Source: a phage
Length of the DNA: 64,000 nucleotides
Sequence record: PZ583739.1
Direction: 5' to 3' (one strand)
Of the stretch, positions 1,664-62,152 are shown one piece after another; the stretch's first letter is position 1; every line of letters begins with the position of its first letter. Below the pieces are notes generated by a model. The model had not been told where the DNA came from, did not search any database, and saw nothing but the letters and a program-made list of their open reading frames with translations. A program made the translations under genes and the position numbers.

Positions 1664-2831
1664 GGTCTTCCATCATATCTAAATCGTTTTCGATATCTGC
1701 AGCGGACGGTTTTGTCTTACCTTCAGGAGCAGAGTATTTTTCAACCTTGGAGGCAATAAGCGCATCAACTTCGGCATCAACAACAGCATTGCTATCGATT
1801 GCACCCAGTTGGTAATGGCGTTTGATTGCATCACGGAAAGGTTCGTGTTTAAACAGCGGCCCCCAGAATTCGGTGCAGTTAGTATCTTTTGCGCGCCATG
1901 ATTTTTCTTCGCGGACCATTTCCCCGGTCTCAACATCAAGATATTCACGGTTATACCAACCAACTTTTGGTTTAACCACAAATCCGATTTCTATTGCCAT
2001 ATCAAGCAGGCCAGAATACGGGTCAATACCGCCATCGAATTTTACATCAATGAAGAATTTACTTTTCTCTTTGACCATACGAGATTTTTCGGCGTTCAGA
2101 ACAAATTGGAAGCCTTCAAGTTCTTTACCAGTTTCTTTAATCTGACGTTTACCGATAATGAATACAGTGTCCGCGGAATACATAACACCTGTGCCACCGG
2201 TCATAACGGTTTTACTGTACATCTCAATCGTCTCGATTGTATGGTTAACCGCGACACAAGGAATATCCTTGATACTAAAATAAGGGGTAACAATACGGAA
2301 CAGAGATTTCAGGGATTTAGCACGAGTCATATCGCCAACGACTTTTTCGTTCATCGCATCTTCTGTTTCTTTTTTCGACGCCATGTTACCGATTGAGTCA
2401 ATAAAGATAATGACTTTTTCACCACGCTCAATTGCTTCAAGCTGGTTAACCATATCAACTTTCAATTGTTCAACCGACTGGATTGGTGTATGGATAACAC
2501 GCTCCGGGTCTACTTTCATTGCACGAAGATATGCTTCTGTGATACCAAATTCTGAATCATAGAACAAACAGATTGCGTCGGGGTATTTGTTCATATATGC
2601 AGAGACCATCGTTAAACCCATATTGGATTTAAAGTGTTTTGACGGACCAGCAAAAATAGTCAAACCTGACTGCATACCACCATCTAGTGCACCGCTGATT
2701 GCAATGTTCAGCATCGGGATTTTTGTACGAACTACATCTTTATCATTAAAGAACTTGGACTTGGTAAGAGTCGCAGTCATTTTGGATGTAGAAGCTTTAA
2801 TCAAACGGGATTTCAAATCTGCAATAGACAT
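1653..2831 (-). CDS. uvsX: UvsX recombinase (RecA/Rad51-like)
   Basis: 392 aa; MSIADLKSRLIKASTSKMTA...GLTIFAGPSKHFKSN (Walker A)...near-collinear with T4 UvsX over full length. Confidence 0.96.
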   Translation of the reverse strand: MSIADLKSRLIKASTSKMTATLTKSKFFNDKDVVRTKIPMLNIAISGALDGGMQSGLTIFAGPSKHFKSNMGLTMVSAYMNKYPDAICLFYDSEFGITEAYLRAMKVDPERVIHTPIQSVEQLKVDMVNQLEAIERGEKVIIFIDSIGNMASKKETEDAMNEKVVGDMTRAKSLKSLFRIVTPYFSIKDIPCVAVNHTIETIEMYSKTVMTGGTGVMYSADTVFIIGKRQIKETGKELEGFQFVLNAEKSRMVKEKSKFFIDVKFDGGIDPYSGLLDMAIEIGFVVKPKVGWYNREYLDVETGEMVREEKSWRAKDTNCTEFWGPLFKHEPFRDAIKRHYQLGAIDSNAVVDAEVDALIASKVEKYSAPEGKTKPSAADIENDLDMMEDLDE

Positions 2832-2884
2832 TCATTTTTTCCATAGGCACCATTATATTTTTCTCACAGGTTTAAGATAGGATA

Positions 2885-2911
2885 ATTATATCACTGTATT
2901 TTCAGAGCAAT
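2885..2911 (-). promoter_or_regulatory. Candidate MotA-dependent middle promoter upstream of uvsX
   Basis: Minus strand reads TTGCTCTGA (MotA-box-like) then 11 nt then TATAAT. Confidence 0.3.
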
Positions 2912-3173
2912 TAACGATTGAATCCACGATTAATTGCACGTTCAACAATCTTCCGGGTCTGACGTTTGTCCCACCAGTACATAAAACCAATACCAAATGC
3001 AGACAACAGCCATAGGCTAATCAATAACATACCAATCATAATATTCTTCTCGCAGTTCAGAGCAATTTAGTAAACGTTACCACGTTTCCAGTTTTCTTCA
3101 TTCAAATGCTTATTACGCTTTTCTAATAGCAACAAACCAATTACTGTTACAACAATCAGAAGTAATAATAACA

Positions 3174-9131: not shown

Positions 9132-9827
9132 TTAATCTTGGAATTCGTGGCTAGAGCCTTGTTCCATTGCAATCACATAGCTTGCTTGTGTGCCTTCAAA
9201 CTTCGTAGCAAATTTATCATCTTTCGCCCAAAGCATAACACGGTAATCAGCCGGAATCATTTTCATATTCAGTTTGTTAATGATAAATTTAAACGCTGCA
9301 TCGCCTTCGTAATCGCCACACACCAGGGAATACAATGGACGCGCTAATTCTTTATCTTCGAGCTGGTTATAACCATGGATAACAATCTTACCGTCTTTGT
9401 TGGTGATTGCAAAAGTGTCCAGAGACAAACCACCAGCCACACGCAGAAGCTGCTGCAGGTCACTGCCTTTCAGGTCGAAGATAACCTTAGCTACCGGGAA
9501 AGGAATCTTCTTAGCAGGGAACACGATAGTGCTCGGGTCAGCTGCAGGCCAGTGAATCGTTGAACGTTGGTCTTTGATAATGATATTCGATGCATCTTCA
9601 GACAGAGATACTTCAGCTTGGTCAGTTACCAGGCCCAGGATACTTAAGAAGCCGTTCAGGTCATAAATTGCCGCTTCAAAGTCGATTGTATCATTGATTT
9701 CAGATTCACCATATGACGCTCCAGTTACAGAACGAGTTAGGATGGTATTGCCTGGTTTAAGCATAATGCCAGAGTAGATGGAGGTGAAGTTTTTCAAAAC
9801 TGCGATGGTGTCACGACTAAATTTCAT
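9132..9827 (-). CDS. 45: Sliding clamp gp45
   Basis: 231 aa; MKFSRDTIAVLKNFTSIYSGIMLKPG...FWPAADPST...LQQLLRV; collinear with T4 gp45. Confidence 0.95.
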   Translation of the reverse strand: MKFSRDTIAVLKNFTSIYSGIMLKPGNTILTRSVTGASYGESEINDTIDFEAAIYDLNGFLSILGLVTDQAEVSLSEDASNIIIKDQRSTIHWPAADPSTIVFPAKKIPFPVAKVIFDLKGSDLQQLLRVAGGLSLDTFAITNKDGKIVIHGYNQLEDKELARPLYSLVCGDYEGDAAFKFIINKLNMKMIPADYRVMLWAKDDKFATKFEGTQASYVIAMEQGSSHEFQD

Positions 9828-10711
9828 TTCATTTTCCTATTAACATAATAATTTGACCAGGACCGGATTGCACCCTGATAGTTTTCATCATTAAACCCAT
9901 GTTCAATGGCGTGTTTTCTAAACTTAATATACCCTGGTTGGCCTAAAGCATTCCACAATGCTTTAAGTTCATCTTCATACTGTAACCAGGTTCCTCTTGC
10001 TTTAGATTTCCTAAATTTTTCTTTAAATTCAGGGTTGGCATTTCGTTCGGTTGCTCGTTTTGAAGCCTTTATTCTATTATCTGAATTATTCCAATATTCA
10101 GTAATTGATTTTAAATATTTTTCATATACTTCAGATGTATTCATTATAGCTTTGAATTTTAAAGCATACTCAACATCTTTATAACGATTTTTGACTTCAA
10201 CAGACCTTGCTTGTCGAGCTTCGTCAGTCCAATATTCTTTTTGGAAGTCTTTAATTGCTTGAATGTGCTTATCTGAAATTGAACAATCTTTACGAACACC
10301 AACATAATCAGATGTAAGTTCAGATGGATGTAATTTAACAACTTTACCCGTTTTCAAGTTTCGGTATGGAGCATATCCAGGAGCATCATAGCGGCTTTTG
10401 TCGTGTGCATACGTTTTATTAAAGTATTTCTCATTGGTTACAGCTTTAACTGACATTTGAAAAATATTTTCTATTTTCCTTGGGTCCTGTTTTGTTTCCC
10501 CAATGATAGTAACAATATAGTCACCGCTATCAATTAATTCATTATACAGCGTAGTATATTTTGAATTCGGAGAACCTGTATAAATTTTATTATTTTTATC
10601 GAGAATATTTTGGCCATTAAATGTCGTATCAACCTTTGAACCAATATAATAACAAGGGAATTCATTATTTTGTTCCCTTGTTATAAAGGTTATTTTATAA
10701 ATCAAATTCAC
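9824..10711 (-). CDS. GIY-YIG family homing endonuclease (Seg-like), free-standing
   Basis: N-terminus LIYKITFITREQNNEFPCYYIGSK fits the GIY-(10-11 aa)-YIG motif; inserted between 45 and rpbA; basic C-terminal half. Confidence 0.7.
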   Translation of the reverse strand: MNLIYKITFITREQNNEFPCYYIGSKVDTTFNGQNILDKNNKIYTGSPNSKYTTLYNELIDSGDYIVTIIGETKQDPRKIENIFQMSVKAVTNEKYFNKTYAHDKSRYDAPGYAPYRNLKTGKVVKLHPSELTSDYVGVRKDCSISDKHIQAIKDFQKEYWTDEARQARSVEVKNRYKDVEYALKFKAIMNTSEVYEKYLKSITEYWNNSDNRIKASKRATERNANPEFKEKFRKSKARGTWLQYEDELKALWNALGQPGYIKFRKHAIEHGFNDENYQGAIRSWSNYYVNRKMK

Positions 10712-11139
10712 GCAACAACTGCCATTTGTTTGCGGATAGCTTCCGGAAGAGATTCAATATACTCTGGAAGTTGCGCAGCAATAATAGAACCAGCTTGGAC
10801 CAGGTGGTCGTCGAAGTCAACACAGTAATCATCTTCGAGACGTTCGGAACCGTCACGGTCGATAACCAGTTTAGCACCAGCAGCCAGTGAATCGTTGTAG
10901 TGATTACGCATCAGTTCAATCCACTTATCAGATACATCAGTATCAATCACACCGTACAGCATGAATTTAATTTCTTGCGGCAGAGACTGCAGACGGGCAG
11001 CAGATGCTTCATCACATGCCAGGACCCAGGATTTGCGGATGCGGTTTTGGTTGTGTGGGTTAGCGTCGGTGCGGATGGTTTTAACTTGGATATCTTTAGC
11101 AGTTACGTTGTTCATAATATTCTCTCTATTCATTATCAA
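10708..11139 (-). CDS. rpbA: RpbA-like RNA polymerase-binding protein
   Basis: Position between 45 and 46; segment TIRTDANPHNQNRIRKSWVLACD...LQSLPQEIKFMLYGVIDTDVSDKWIELMRNHYNDS recalled from T4 RpbA; true start uncertain. Confidence 0.65.
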   Translation of the reverse strand: MIMNRENIMNNVTAKDIQVKTIRTDANPHNQNRIRKSWVLACDEASAARLQSLPQEIKFMLYGVIDTDVSDKWIELMRNHYNDSLAAGAKLVIDRDGSERLEDDYCVDFDDHLVQAGSIIAAQLPEYIESLPEAIRKQMAVVA

Positions 11140-47773: not shown

Positions 47774-48205
47774 TTAAATTTCAAATTCTTTTCGGAAGTT
47801 GGAAGCATAAGACTGAACTGATGCTTTGTTGAATCCAAACTCACGCACAATCATATCAATAACAGCTCTGCGAGCAGCACCATTAGACATATTAACAGTT
47901 TTGAACATATCATAGCATAAATCTTTGTTGCTCATACCGGAGCGTTTAGGTGCTTTTGGTTCAGCTTTAGGAGTAGGTTTAACTTCTGGTTTAACCTGTC
48001 CATCATTCAGACCTTTAAAAATTTTACCTGCCAGAGTTGCCAGTTTAGCAGCTTCGCCACGAGTGATACCAAATACTGCCGGGTTAAATGAAATACCTTC
48101 AGCTGTCAGACGTTTGAAGAACATACGTGCTGCGGATTGTGCTTCAGCTTCAGAAGAGTTGTTTAATGCCAGTTTAACATACTTAACCAGTTTTGAAGTT
48201 TTCAT
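47774..48205 (-). CDS. Hypothetical protein, 143 aa, paralogue of 48289-48714
   Basis: Trimmed to ATG at 48205 (MKTSKLVKY...); C-terminal ...AARRAVIDMIV...VQSYASNFRKEFEI. Confidence 0.45.
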   Translation of the reverse strand: MKTSKLVKYVKLALNNSSEAEAQSAARMFFKRLTAEGISFNPAVFGITRGEAAKLATLAGKIFKGLNDGQVKPEVKPTPKAEPKAPKRSGMSNKDLCYDMFKTVNMSNGAARRAVIDMIVREFGFNKASVQSYASNFRKEFEI

Positions 48206-48247
48206 TTTATTATCCCGTTTGTTTATTTGGTAACTCAGTATGGGATA

Positions 48248-48276
48248 ATTATACACTATCCCACCTGGAAGTAAAA
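48248..48276 (-). promoter_or_regulatory. T4-type early promoter cassette (PeSL-like)
   Basis: Minus strand: GTTTTAC, 17 nt, TATAAT, then TATCCCATACTGAGTTACCAAATAAA. Confidence 0.5.
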
Positions 48277-48288
48277 CACTTTTCTCAA

Positions 48289-48714
48289 TTATTTTTGAGC
48301 TTTGCGGAAGTTGGAAGCATATGACTGAACAACAGTCTTTTTGATATCATGGGTGGTAACCAGAACATCAATCAGAGCACGACGAGCTGCATTATCATTC
48401 ATATCAATTTCTGCAAATGCCTGGAAGCAAATGTCACGAGCGTTACCAGATTTGGACTGGATTTTTTCTTCTTTAACTTCTTCAATTGGGAATTCAATCA
48501 TTTCAGCTTGGATTAATTCAATAATAGATTCTTTTGACTGTTTGGTGTTTACCTTCAGTTCAGAATTAAGGGACTTGGCGATGGCAACAATCTGGGTTGA
48601 AGTCAGATGGATAAGTGCATCTTCACGAATGCAGATTTCACATACTTCGTCGGCAACCATTTTGTTAGTGATGCGGGTAACAGAGAATGCAGAGGTCAGG
48701 GTCAGAAAGTTCAT
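48289..48714 (-). CDS. Hypothetical protein, 141 aa, paralogue of 47774-48205
   Basis: Trimmed to ATG at 48714 (MNFLTLTSAF...); C-terminal ...AARRALIDVLV...VQSYASNFRKAQK. Confidence 0.45.
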   Translation of the reverse strand: MNFLTLTSAFSVTRITNKMVADEVCEICIREDALIHLTSTQIVAIAKSLNSELKVNTKQSKESIIELIQAEMIEFPIEEVKEEKIQSKSGNARDICFQAFAEIDMNDNAARRALIDVLVTTHDIKKTVVQSYASNFRKAQK

Positions 48715-61185: not shown

Positions 61186-61478
61186 TGGCTGGATTAAGTT
61201 TCAATCAATGTGTTACAGCAGGCCACGAAGCATGGCCACCGACTGTAATTAATGCAACTCAAGGTAAAGTATTCACCGGGGGAATTCCGGTGTTAGTTGC
61301 CGGAGACCCTATTACCGAGCATACCGAAATTAAAAAACCATATGAAACTCACGGTGGAGTAACACAACCGCGCACATCAAAAGTATTTGTTACCGGTAAG
61401 AAAGCTGTTCAAATGGCAGACCCGATTTCATGTGGTGATACTGTCGCACAAGCTTCAGGGAAGGTGTTCATAAAATGA
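61185..61478 (+). CDS. 5.4: PAAR-repeat spike-tip protein gp5.4
   Basis: 97 aa; PAAR-like motifs ([20 protein letters not shown]); position after gene 5. Confidence 0.85.
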
Positions 61479-62152
61479 ACAAAGAATTTAATTTTGTATA
61501 TGTAACTACAAACCTAGAAAATGGTAAAAAGTATATAGGCAAACATTCTACTGACGATATGTTTGATGGATATTACGGCACAGGGGAGCTTATCAAAAAG
61601 GCTTATAAAAAATATGGAAAGGATTCGTTTGAGACAAAAATAATAAAATTTTTTGATACTGAAGATGAAGCTTACGACTACGAAGAATTTTTAGTAGACG
61701 AATCTATAATTTATGATGATAGATATTATAATATAGATTTGGGTGGCAAAGGAAGTATGCGAGGAAGAAAGCATAAGGAATCTTCAAAAAAGCAAACATC
61801 AGACAAAATGAAGGGTAGGCCAAAGCCACCTAGAAGTAAAGAACATATTGAAAATTTTGAAAAAGCTATGGCCAAAAGGAGAAAACCTAAGCTACCTCCA
61901 AAACCGAGGGTTTTTGTTAGAGGAGAAGAGCATCCTTTATATAAAAGACCAAGACCTCAATCTGTTATTGACCTATGCAAACTTAATAATAGAAAACACC
62001 CCATTTGGCAATCATATGATATTTTATTCAAATTATGGAAAGAAAATGATAAGCCAGGTTGGAGAAAAATGACACGATTGGCCATTGAAAACGGATTTCC
62101 AAATACGGCTTATGACAAAATGATAAAACAATTTAAACAGGATTCAGAATAA
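61475..62152 (+). CDS. GIY-YIG homing endonuclease (Seg-like), inserted between 5.4 and 6
   Basis: 225 aa; [19 protein letters not shown] fits GIY-x10-YIG; basic Lys/Arg/Pro-rich C-terminal half; AT-rich relative to neighbours. Confidence 0.8.

Follow-up and report, generated by a model that had tools for sequence, protein, structure and literature searches.

A SegG-like homing endonuclease gene at the rpbA-45 junction of a Gaprivervirus, with a putative target at the start of the sliding-clamp gene

The 64,000-nucleotide stretch analysed here (hereafter the window) belongs to a Gaprivervirus, a T4-like coliphage with about 96% identity to VR26. Between rpbA and gene 45 it carries an open reading frame (ORF) whose assignment to the homing endonucleases, as a member of the SegG-like branch of the GIY-YIG class, is supported by sequence homology and by predicted structure. 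We favor the reading, at a probability of about 0.75, that the ORF is a free-standing, intact homing endonuclease gene (HEG) which would home into HEG-less alleles by cutting near the start of gene 45 and which contains promoter-like motifs.

Gene structure and occupancy of the junction

An initial annotation had placed a gene of this kind at 9824-10711, between gene 45 and rpbA and within the replication-gene operon. The position is an exact match to an ORF of 295 aa on the minus strand, and rpbA, the ORF and gene 45 are co-oriented with 46, 45.2, 44 and 62. The gene and its neighbors are arranged as follows.

9132..9827, minus strand: gene 45 (sliding clamp), downstream neighbor and putative target gene (Pfam gp45-slide_C, 2.5e-36, and DNA_PPF)
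9824..9827, minus strand: ATGA, in which the TGA stop of the HEG overlaps the ATG of gene 45 (sequence)
9824..10711, minus strand: HEG, 295 aa, GTG start and TGA stop (ORF list, sequence)
10708..10711, minus strand: GTGA, in which the GTG start of the HEG overlaps the TGA stop of rpbA (sequence)
10708..11139, minus strand: rpbA, upstream neighbor (Pfam Phage_RpbA, 2.5e-44)

The protein begins MNLIYKITF...CYYIGSK, the N-terminus MN(L)(I/V)Y recurs in its homologues, and the GC content of the gene is 31.8% as compared with 43-45% in the flanks. A chance ORF is ruled out by the existence of full-length homologues and by a dN/dS of 0.06 against VR26 over the whole ORF, nuclease domain included. 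This level of purifying selection indicates a functional protein; within codons 1-85, 12 synonymous and 2 non-synonymous codon differences separate the gene from that of VR26. In the GenBank entry of VR26 the start of the gene has been placed at an internal ATG, and the catalytic motifs are missing from the deposited protein because of this; many other homologues are annotated merely as “hypothetical protein”. A second Seg-like ORF, grouped with the canonical SegD/SegE/SegF-type endonucleases, is present in the window at 61475-62152.

Presence and absence at the 45-rpbA junction, which the initial annotation had put forward as a check, varies among close records. The HEG is carried by 3 of 34 close records (VR26 twice, and TH15), or 2 of approximately 28 distinct close phages, and in the other 31 records the alignment is broken into segments with the ORF left out; SP18, VR7 and VR25 are among the phages without the HEG. 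In a junction alignment of three HEG-less records, a spacer of 28-30 bp is found where carriers have the HEG. The same rpbA/45 junction holds homologues, 55-63% identical and some of them frameshifted, in some Tequatrovirus and Mosigvirus genomes, and is without an HEG in T4 and RB69. The small ORFs that T4 had been supposed to contain at this position do not exist; the T4 junction is instead a 55-bp non-coding spacer carrying the mapped middle promoter P45. Occupancy of one precise site in collinear genomes is sporadic, as is characteristic of free-standing HEGs.

Among the three genus variants, amino acid identity is 55-63% for the HEG, 61-79% for gp45 and 42-66% for RpbA. We therefore reject a recent transfer of the HEG across genera; its variants are as diverged as gp45 and RpbA, and the HEG lineages should consequently be old. 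The idea that empty sites owe their 30-bp spacer to deletion of an HEG, with its two ends left behind, was likewise discarded, since the similarity between the spacer and the ends of the HEG (TTTGATTT..ATAAAA) was equalled by shuffled spacers (p = 0.33-0.88).

A divergent GIY-YIG domain joined to helical modules

Four regions can be distinguished along the protein.

10406..10711, minus strand: SegG-like divergent GIY-YIG nuclease domain, residues 1-102 (BLASTP to SegG, hhalign, AF2)
10277..10396, minus strand: small beta-rich extension, residues 106-145 (family alignment, AF2 secondary structure)
9998..10276, minus strand: helical linker, residues 146-238 (AF2 model all-helical; NUMOD3 region in relatives)
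9842..9994, minus strand: C-terminal three-helix module, residues 240-290 (phmmer matches confined to the C-terminus)

The nuclease domain contains the motif residues I4-Y5, Y22-I23-G24, K26, Y44-x-G46, E81 and N98, and it is 34% identical to the N-terminus of T4 SegG over 102 aa (BLASTP, E=8e-12). When a family N-terminal profile was compared by hhalign with I-TevI, SegD, SegE and two Seg-type sequences, a set from which SegG was left out, residues 2-103 aligned with residues 3-95 at a probability of 88.6% (E=2.7e-6), with GIY, YIG and the Asn in register; an earlier version with 3 sequences gave 58.8%. E81 and N98 are the sole invariant columns of a 119-sequence family alignment, N98 standing opposite the catalytic N90 of I-TevI and E81 within one residue of its catalytic E75, both beyond the third strand, and Y5, Y22, I23 and G24 are each conserved in more than 90% of the 119 homologues. 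In the AF2 model of the N-terminal domain (pLDDT 91), which has the order beta-beta-alpha-beta-alpha, L3-I4-Y5 belong to the strand spanning residues 2-8 and Y22-I23-G24 to the adjacent one, at 21-26. Foldseek matches of the model in BFVD included SegG of Shigella phage JK42 (E=7.4e-11), gp32.1 of VR7 (E=1.5e-7) and phage proteins, likewise predicted structures, annotated as GIY-YIG (4e-5 to 1e-3). The protein also matched PHROG 7504, “homing endonuclease”, at 3.9e-14. The Seg-like GIY-YIG identity first proposed from the letters alone is in our view borne out by the SegG match, the hhalign and BFVD comparisons, the E81/N98 pair and the patchy occupancy of the site.

Could the “IY...YIG” likeness be superficial, and the domain have some other fold or function? 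Several negative results point in that direction. The single protein gave 0 Pfam families at E<=1 and 0 NCBIfam families, PDB sequence searches with the single protein or a 6-sequence profile gave no nuclease match, and the full-length model had no Foldseek match in the PDB. The top match of the N-terminal model among 350,542 PDB chains, although it was the catalytic domain of I-TevI (1ln0_A), was non-significant (E=1.5, probability 0.20, target-normalised TM 0.51). However, the Pfam negatives are uninformative on the GIY-YIG call, because the proven endonuclease T4 SegG, run as a positive control, had 0 matches as well; T4 SegD and SegE fell below the PF01541 cut-off. It follows that the PF01541 and PF19835 profiles do not cover the SegG-like branch. 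Absence of the fold from profile searches had been named at the outset as grounds for refutation, and taken literally it is what the Pfam, NCBIfam and PDB sequence searches returned; as a test it is too blunt, given the equally empty SegG control. Moreover, 11 of 121 homologues touched PF19835 (SegE_GIY-YIG; best E=3.8e-4), and with the SegG homology, the motifs in register, the I-TevI domain at the head of the PDB ranking and GIY-YIG proteins among the BFVD matches, we consider a non-GIY-YIG domain very improbable.

The domain nevertheless departs from the canonical form. Its IY-to-YIG spacer is 16 residues long, the usual GIY-to-YIG spacer being 10-11 residues. In the hhalign comparison N32 stands opposite R27, the conserved Arg in the first helix of I-TevI, a position at which T4 SegD and SegE are gapped, and no conserved Arg equivalent to R27 was found. 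K26, conserved in more than 90% of the family sequences, is a candidate substitute for the Arg.

Residues 106-145 follow the family pattern Y..Y....TGK.V.L......YVGV, and according to an exhaustive search most relatives have residues 1 to ~150 in common. In the linker region 103 of 121 family members match Pfam NUMOD3 (PF07460), and the family profile matches the DNA-binding domain of I-TevI (1i3j) at E=8e-5; this protein itself has no Pfam match to NUMOD3 at E<=1, and for the four relatives nearest to it (P0001-P0004) no precomputed Pfam domain is on record. Five proteins (P0181, P0203, P0208, P0215 and P0216) were matched by phmmer at the C-terminus only. They carry HHILPK (HNH) or Seg-type N-termini, P0215 and P0216 being canonical Seg-type, and Pfam gave no useful family for them or for the module. 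Residues 240-290 are probably a sequence-specific DNA-binding domain. The three-helix module is common to HNH-type and canonical Seg-type proteins.

Recoding at the start of gene 45

The differences between carrier and empty alleles are confined to a short tract.

9807..9819, minus strand: cluster of 7 fixed substitutions, gene 45 nt 9-21, codons 3-7 (carrier/non-carrier comparison)

In a comparison of 3 HEG+ with 5 HEG- Gapriverviruses, no fixed difference other than these was found over 1.3 kb to either side of the HEG. Codons 3-7 read TTC TCT AAA GAC ACT in empty alleles and TTT AGT CGT GAC ACC in carriers, a recoding that alters one residue (K5R). In three independent genus pairs the divergence is confined to nt 1-30 of gene 45; here T4 and SHBML-50-1 match at 19/30 positions and RB69 and AV111 at 17/30, as against 27-30/30 elsewhere in the gene. 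The HEG-less alleles of three genera have TCTAAAGAYACTA in codons 4-8. Since the fixed differences are found only in codons 3-7, they suggest that the target of the HEG is at the start of gene 45, and nt 9-21 are a candidate for target-site immunity or for a co-conversion tract. The cluster could also be no more than a recombination joint dating from an old acquisition.

SegG cuts approximately 330 bp from its own gene, and SegF likewise cuts at a distance. A target beside the insertion site is not guaranteed, because these enzymes cut hundreds of bp away, and cleavage distant from the insertion site by T4 free-standing endonucleases is reportedly the subject of Liu et al. 2003. An active HEG could thus cut hundreds of bp off, in gene 45, rpbA or beyond, the cluster being the joint left by a diverged donor. 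Cleavage remote from the insertion site is frequent among the free-standing endonucleases of T4 (PMC2988022), which agrees with such a distant cut, as does the resemblance of the carrier codons AGT CGT to AGC CGT of the Mosigvirus carrier allele, which would be expected of donor-derived sequence. However, repair of a distant cut would co-convert the intervening DNA, yet the 1.3 kb on either side holds no further fixed difference, and the restriction of divergence to the same 30 nt in three independent pairs also argues against it. We regard a distant cut as unlikely.

Embedded promoter-like motifs, a proposed homing cycle and relation to known systems

Two promoter-like elements lie within the HEG.

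10143..10168, minus strand: MotA-box-type middle promoter motif 1, TATGCTTTA-N11-TATAAT (pattern scan)
9926..9952, minus strand: MotA-box-type middle promoter motif 2, AATGCTTTA-N12-TATATT (pattern scan)

Motif 1, on the sense strand, is about 320 nt upstream of gene 45 and conserved in VR26, TH15 and AV111. Motif 2 precedes the ATG of gene 45 by about 100 nt, and SHBML-50-1 has TGCTTAC-N12-TATAAT at its position. The pattern occurred 9 times across the 64 kb, as compared with 0.49 times in shuffled sequence, and it recovered the mapped T4 promoters P45 and P45.2 as a control. By analogy with segG, which does so for gene 32, the embedded motifs could serve gene 45, in which case deletion of the HEG would be penalised. 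Their conservation could also be explained by coding constraint, since they overlap conserved codons. No late promoter (TATAAATA) was found inside or adjoining the ORF. A Shine-Dalgarno-like AGGAAA for gene 45 lies at 9833-9838, in the last codons of the HEG, and the C-terminal NRKxK / AGGAAA is kept in all three genus variants. Upstream of the GTG of the HEG itself no Shine-Dalgarno sequence is evident. At mobE and I-TevI the start codon is hidden by an RNA hairpin; a search for a hairpin hiding the HEG start found no unusual structure (z = -0.2).

These elements bear on whether the protein is still a mobile nuclease. It might be catalytically dead or domesticated, and kept for the promoters and ribosome-binding site of the essential gene 45 or as a DNA-binding regulator or a weapon against rival phages. 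Such a role would fit a canonical Arg that is not identifiable, promoter-like motifs and a gene 45 Shine-Dalgarno within the ORF, and a frameshifted AV111 copy that retains both promoter motifs. It is at odds with the low dN/dS across the whole ORF, the preponderance of synonymous changes in codons 1-85 and the invariant Glu81 and Asn98, and rarity among close phages is better suited to a selfish element than to a beneficial gene. We give loss of nuclease function only a slim chance.

The HEG takes the place of the 30-bp spacer between rpbA and gene 45 and is joined to both neighbors through the overlapping stop and start codons. If it is active, as we prefer, we infer the following cycle. The HEG would lack a promoter of its own and be transcribed as a passenger within the 46-45.2-rpbA-45-44-62 unit. 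Translation, judged from the GTG start and the lack of a Shine-Dalgarno sequence, would be low and coupled to rpbA. In mixed infections with an HEG-less relative, the C-terminal helical modules would recognise the conserved spacer together with the beginning of gene 45, the N-terminal nuclease would cut nearby, and repair from the carrier genome would copy the HEG together with adjacent gene 45 bases into the recipient. The carrier genome would be protected because it has lost the spacer through the insertion and has a recoded version of gene 45 codons 3-7. The analogy of SegG and SegF makes marker exclusion by the HEG, which had also been proposed initially, plausible.

Among the closest known systems is T4 SegG (gp32.1), encoded by a free-standing GIY-YIG homing endonuclease gene between genes 32 and 59. 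The two nuclease domains have in common M.(I/V)Y..TF..R......P.YYIGSK...Y..S...E...N..YFN, and both genes are free-standing, co-oriented with the replication gene cluster and directly upstream of an essential replication gene. However, the present gene is inserted at rpbA/45 and segG at 59/32, the C-terminal halves are unrelated (295 aa here, 210 aa in SegG, with only the N-termini aligning), and the substitutions described above suggest a target adjoining the insertion site, whereas the SegG site is distant. Both ORFs contain promoter or promoter-like elements for the downstream gene; SegG is listed among the active GIY-YIG endonucleases, with gene 32 as its target and with promoters of gene 32 lying inside segG (PMC2988022).

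I-TevI, encoded in the td intron of T4 and the prototype structure for GIY-YIG homing endonucleases, similarly has an N-terminal catalytic domain that a long linker connects to a DNA-binding region at the C-terminus, and its Glu and Asn are in register with those found here. It differs in being intron-encoded rather than free-standing, and the present protein has an inserted beta-hairpin region (residues 29-45) within a domain with a 16-residue IY-YIG gap; neither a counterpart of Arg27 nor a zinc finger nor a Pfam GIY-YIG match was found in it. SegD, SegE and SegF are, like this HEG, free-standing, co-oriented selfish genes of T4-like phages, and their Y-x-GS(G) motif after YIG is also present. 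The C-terminal module occurs in the canonical Seg-type P0215 and P0216 too, but canonical Seg proteins reach or approach the PF01541 and PF19835 thresholds, and the present protein and SegG do not.

A broader combination of these features can be put forward tentatively, and we doubt that all of it holds. The SegG-like clade would be a distinct GIY-YIG variant (long IY-YIG spacer, inserted hairpin, no canonical Arg) unseen by current profiles; its member here would recognise and cut the ribosome-binding site and first codons of the essential gene 45 and would supply gene 45 with a middle promoter and Shine-Dalgarno from within its own ORF, so being self-driving and costly to delete; and an uncatalogued C-terminal module of about 45 aa would have been shuffled between GIY-YIG and HNH endonucleases.

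In conclusion, the HEG is an unremarkable addition to a known class at an apparently unstudied site, and it leaves the understanding of homing endonucleases unchanged. Our literature search found no paper specific to a homing endonuclease at the 45/rpbA junction, and rpbA/45 is not among the T4 homing endonuclease sites tabulated in a 2010 review (PMC2988022), to which it adds a further site. The finding also has value for annotation, in that Pfam and NCBIfam fail to recognise a nuclease domain of the SegG-like kind. When carrier alleles are set against empty ones in three genera, a sharp target prediction results, namely the first ~8 codons of the sliding clamp. If this prediction is true, mixed infections should show a bias in the inheritance of clamp and rpbA alleles.

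The junction of rpbA and gene 45

The phage is a Gaprivervirus, and across the rpbA-45 region the window is 95.7% identical to vB_EcoM_VR26. The endonuclease ORF is joined to both of its neighbours through 4-nt overlaps, with 45.2 and gene 46 lying 5' of rpbA on the same strand and 44, then 62, lying 3' of gene 45. Moreover, the ribosome-binding site of gene 45 (AGGAAA) falls within the last codons of the ORF. The coordinates, motif and gene context proposed in the initial annotation are all correct, as follows from the ORF sequence and from the neighbours identified by Pfam. Its statement that T4 has only small ORFs between gene 45 and rpbA is wrong, since in T4 this interval is a non-coding spacer of 55 bp.

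Features of the rpbA-45 region (coordinates, strand, description)
9132..9827, minus: gene 45, downstream of the ORF (gp45-slide_C, 2.5e-36)
9824..10711, minus: endonuclease ORF, 295 codons, start GTG, then MNLIYKITFITREQNNEFPCYYIGSK
9824-9827, minus: ATGA, ORF TGA overlapping the gene 45 ATG
9842-9994, minus: C-terminal three-helix module, residues 240-290
9952-9926, minus, ORF sense: MotA-type middle-promoter motif 2, a pattern match inside the ORF
10168-10143, minus, ORF sense: MotA-type middle-promoter motif 1, TATGCTTTA-N11-TATAAT
10708-10711, minus: GTGA, ORF GTG start overlapping the rpbA TGA
10708..11139, minus: rpbA, upstream of the ORF (Phage_RpbA, 2.5e-44)

Domains of the encoded protein

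The GIY-YIG fold, also claimed in the initial annotation, failed to appear in simple searches. Pfam gave no family at E<=1 for the ORF protein, NCBIfam and PDB sequence searches gave no match, and neither did Foldseek against the PDB with the confident full-length AF2 model (pLDDT 89.7). With the model of residues 1-145 (pLDDT 91, pTM 0.85), the I-TevI catalytic domain 1ln0 ranked first of 350,542 chains, at a non-significant level (E=1.5, target-normalised TM 0.51). Decisive for the interpretation of these failures is the control with T4 SegG (47910-48542 of the T4 record, minus strand), which is listed among the active GIY-YIG homing endonucleases, with gene 32 as its target (PMC2988022), and matched zero Pfam families at E<=0.1; T4 SegD and SegE are under the PF01541 cut-off.

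Positive evidence for the fold came from homology to SegG, with 34% identity over the first 102 residues (E=8e-12), and from profile-profile alignment. A family profile of 120 sequences aligned over residues 2-103 with a profile built from I-TevI, SegD, SegE and two sequences of Seg type, SegG being left out, at a probability of 88.6% (E=2.7e-6), with IY, YIG and Asn in register and Glu at most one residue off. E81 and N98 are the sole invariant columns in 119 homologues, and Y5, Y22, I23, G24 and K26 are more than 90% conserved. The model's matches among BFVD predicted structures include SegG (7e-11), VR7 gp32.1 and GIY-YIG-annotated proteins, PHROG 7504 "homing endonuclease" was matched at 3.9e-14, and 11 of the 121 family members show some match to Pfam SegE_GIY-YIG. 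We conclude that the N-terminus is a SegG-like, divergent GIY-YIG domain, which departs from canonical members on three points: its IY-YIG spacer is 16 residues long, a hairpin region is inserted at residues 29-45, and no counterpart of I-TevI Arg27 is identifiable.

A small beta-rich extension, conserved family-wide, follows at residues 106-145, and residues 146-238 are helical. The latter region contains NUMOD3 motifs in 103 of 121 relatives, none being detectable by Pfam in the ORF protein itself; the family profile matches the I-TevI DNA-binding domain 1i3j at 8e-5. The C-terminal module (∼45 aa, W..YEDEL..LW...G.PG...FRK.A...GF.D..Y) has no Pfam family. An exhaustive search found it as well, frequently as tandem copies, in P0181 and P0203, whose N-terminus is of the HNH type, and in P0215 and P0216, which are canonical Seg-type proteins; Pfam scans of these proteins, which match the C-terminus only, were uninformative. 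The module appears to be an as yet uncatalogued, nuclease-associated DNA-binding unit, and the modular build of the protein is the usual design of phage homing endonucleases.

Coding-sequence comparison shows that purifying selection acts on the full-length protein, nuclease domain included: dN/dS against VR26 and TH15 is 0.06-0.07, and codons 1-85 differ between the window and VR26 by 12 synonymous and 2 non-synonymous codons. At 2246-3133 of the VR26 record (minus strand), GenBank annotates the gene as VR26_053, "putative DNA endonuclease" (210 aa), from the internal ATG at codon 86 of 295. The annotated protein thereby lacks the Glu and IY/YIG motifs, although the 85 codons before that ATG are intact.

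Distribution, age and predicted target

Presence of the gene at the 45-rpbA junction was checked in related phages and is patchy. Three of 34 close records carry it, two of VR26 and one of TH15, and the remaining 31, SP18, VR7, VR25 and VR20 included, matched the query flanks only. Empty sites run from rpbA (...GCT TAA) through 28-30 bp (30 bp in the extracted SP18 spacer) to the gene 45 ATG. Full-length homologues of 55-63% identity occupy rpbA/45 in some Tequatrovirus (SHBML-50-1, GiZh, others) and some Mosigvirus (AV111, others), and the junction is empty in T4 and RB69. The G+C content is 31.8% in the ORF and 43-45% in rpbA and gene 45, and the ORF is an insert at rpbA/45. The empty-site spacer resembles the two ORF ends no more than expected by chance.

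Between the three genera, identity is 55-63% for the ORF variants, 61-79% for gp45 and 42-66% for RpbA; since the variants have diverged about as much as these neighbours, the lineages at rpbA/45 are old. The AV111 copy (1501-2390 of its record) is a pseudogene through a 1-nt deletion. Among the remaining Mosigvirus and Tequatrovirus homologues, several come up in tblastn as two pieces or have a truncated N-terminus (EC121). Such a mixture of intact, decayed and absent copies is what one would expect for a homing endonuclease gene.

VR20, which has an empty rpbA/45 site, contains a different ORF of 196 aa inserted between 44 and 45 (1558-2148 of its record, minus strand). It has a weak NUMOD3 match (E=0.008) and probably represents a further homing endonuclease gene of the replication cluster.

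Three carriers (window, VR26, TH15) and five non-carriers (SP18, VR20, TH41, VR25, VR7) were compared for fixed differences over 1.3 kb per side. The sole such differences are seven substitutions, at nt 9, 10, 11, 13, 14, 15 and 21 of gene 45; at the junction itself the last rpbA codon and stop also differ. The seven together turn TTC TCT AAA GAC ACT of non-carriers into TTT AGT CGT GAC ACC of carriers, with one K5R change. Divergence is just as sharply localised in the other two genera: over the first 30 nt of gene 45, T4 and SHBML-50-1 match at 19/30 positions and RB69 and AV111 at 17/30, against 27-30/30 in the rest of the gene. Codons 4-8, TCTAAAGAYACTA, are common to the empty alleles of all three genera, and nt 21 differs in every carrier. 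It could be argued that the cluster is merely an old recombination joint and that the enzyme cuts at a distance, as SegG does. We consider this unlikely, since a distant break would have co-converted all intervening DNA; the localised pattern points to the spacer and the gene 45 start as the predicted site of recognition or cleavage. Carriers would then be immune through loss of the spacer and recoding of the gene 45 codons.

Expression, kinship and significance

No late promoter (TATAAATA) was found near the ORF, and its start displays no Shine-Dalgarno sequence and no unusual RNA structure; the ORF may be a promoterless passenger translated through coupling to rpbA. The two internal motifs follow the T4 middle-promoter pattern, a MotA box (a/t)(a/t)TGCTT(t/c)A at 12+/-1 bp from a -10 element (PMC2988021). 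This pattern has 9 matches in the entire 64-kb window versus 0.49 in shuffles, and also picks out two T4 promoters that were mapped by experiment, P45 (start 32626) and P45.2, of which P45 sits in the rpbA-45 spacer, the one replaced by the insert in Tequatrovirus carriers. VR26 and TH15 retain both motifs, as does the AV111 copy (63% identical), where they are intact in a pseudogene, and SHBML-50-1 keeps a near-consensus form of motif 2. Coding constraint could explain this conservation. At 9926-9983 two MotA-box sequences AATGCTTTA lie inverted, 4 bp apart (TAAAGCATT CCAC AATGCTTTA on the plus strand), so that the pattern matches on both strands.

The closest known relative of the ORF protein is T4 SegG. 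Both have homologous nuclease domains and are encoded by free-standing, co-oriented genes just upstream of an essential replication gene; the insertion site, the C-terminal half and probably the target geometry differ. The segG ORF holds gene 32 promoters, an arrangement argued to favour keeping the endonuclease gene (PMC2988022), and our ORF similarly holds putative promoters and the gene 45 ribosome-binding site. A further GIY-YIG ORF, of the canonical Seg type and 225 aa long, lies at 61475-62152 (plus strand) and passes PF01541 (24.3 bits) and PF19835; the window thus has at least two free-standing GIY-YIG genes.

Some copies of the ORF are already labelled "homing endonuclease" or "putative DNA endonuclease" in RefSeq/GenBank, and our literature search found no paper on a homing endonuclease at the rpbA/45 junction. 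The ORF encodes a probable, uncharacterised homing endonuclease of a known class. It matters mainly for its testable target prediction and for an annotation blind spot: the SegG-like nuclease domain, for which the exhaustive search gave 132 clusters at 50% identity, lies outside current curated profiles, as T4 SegG itself has no Pfam family.
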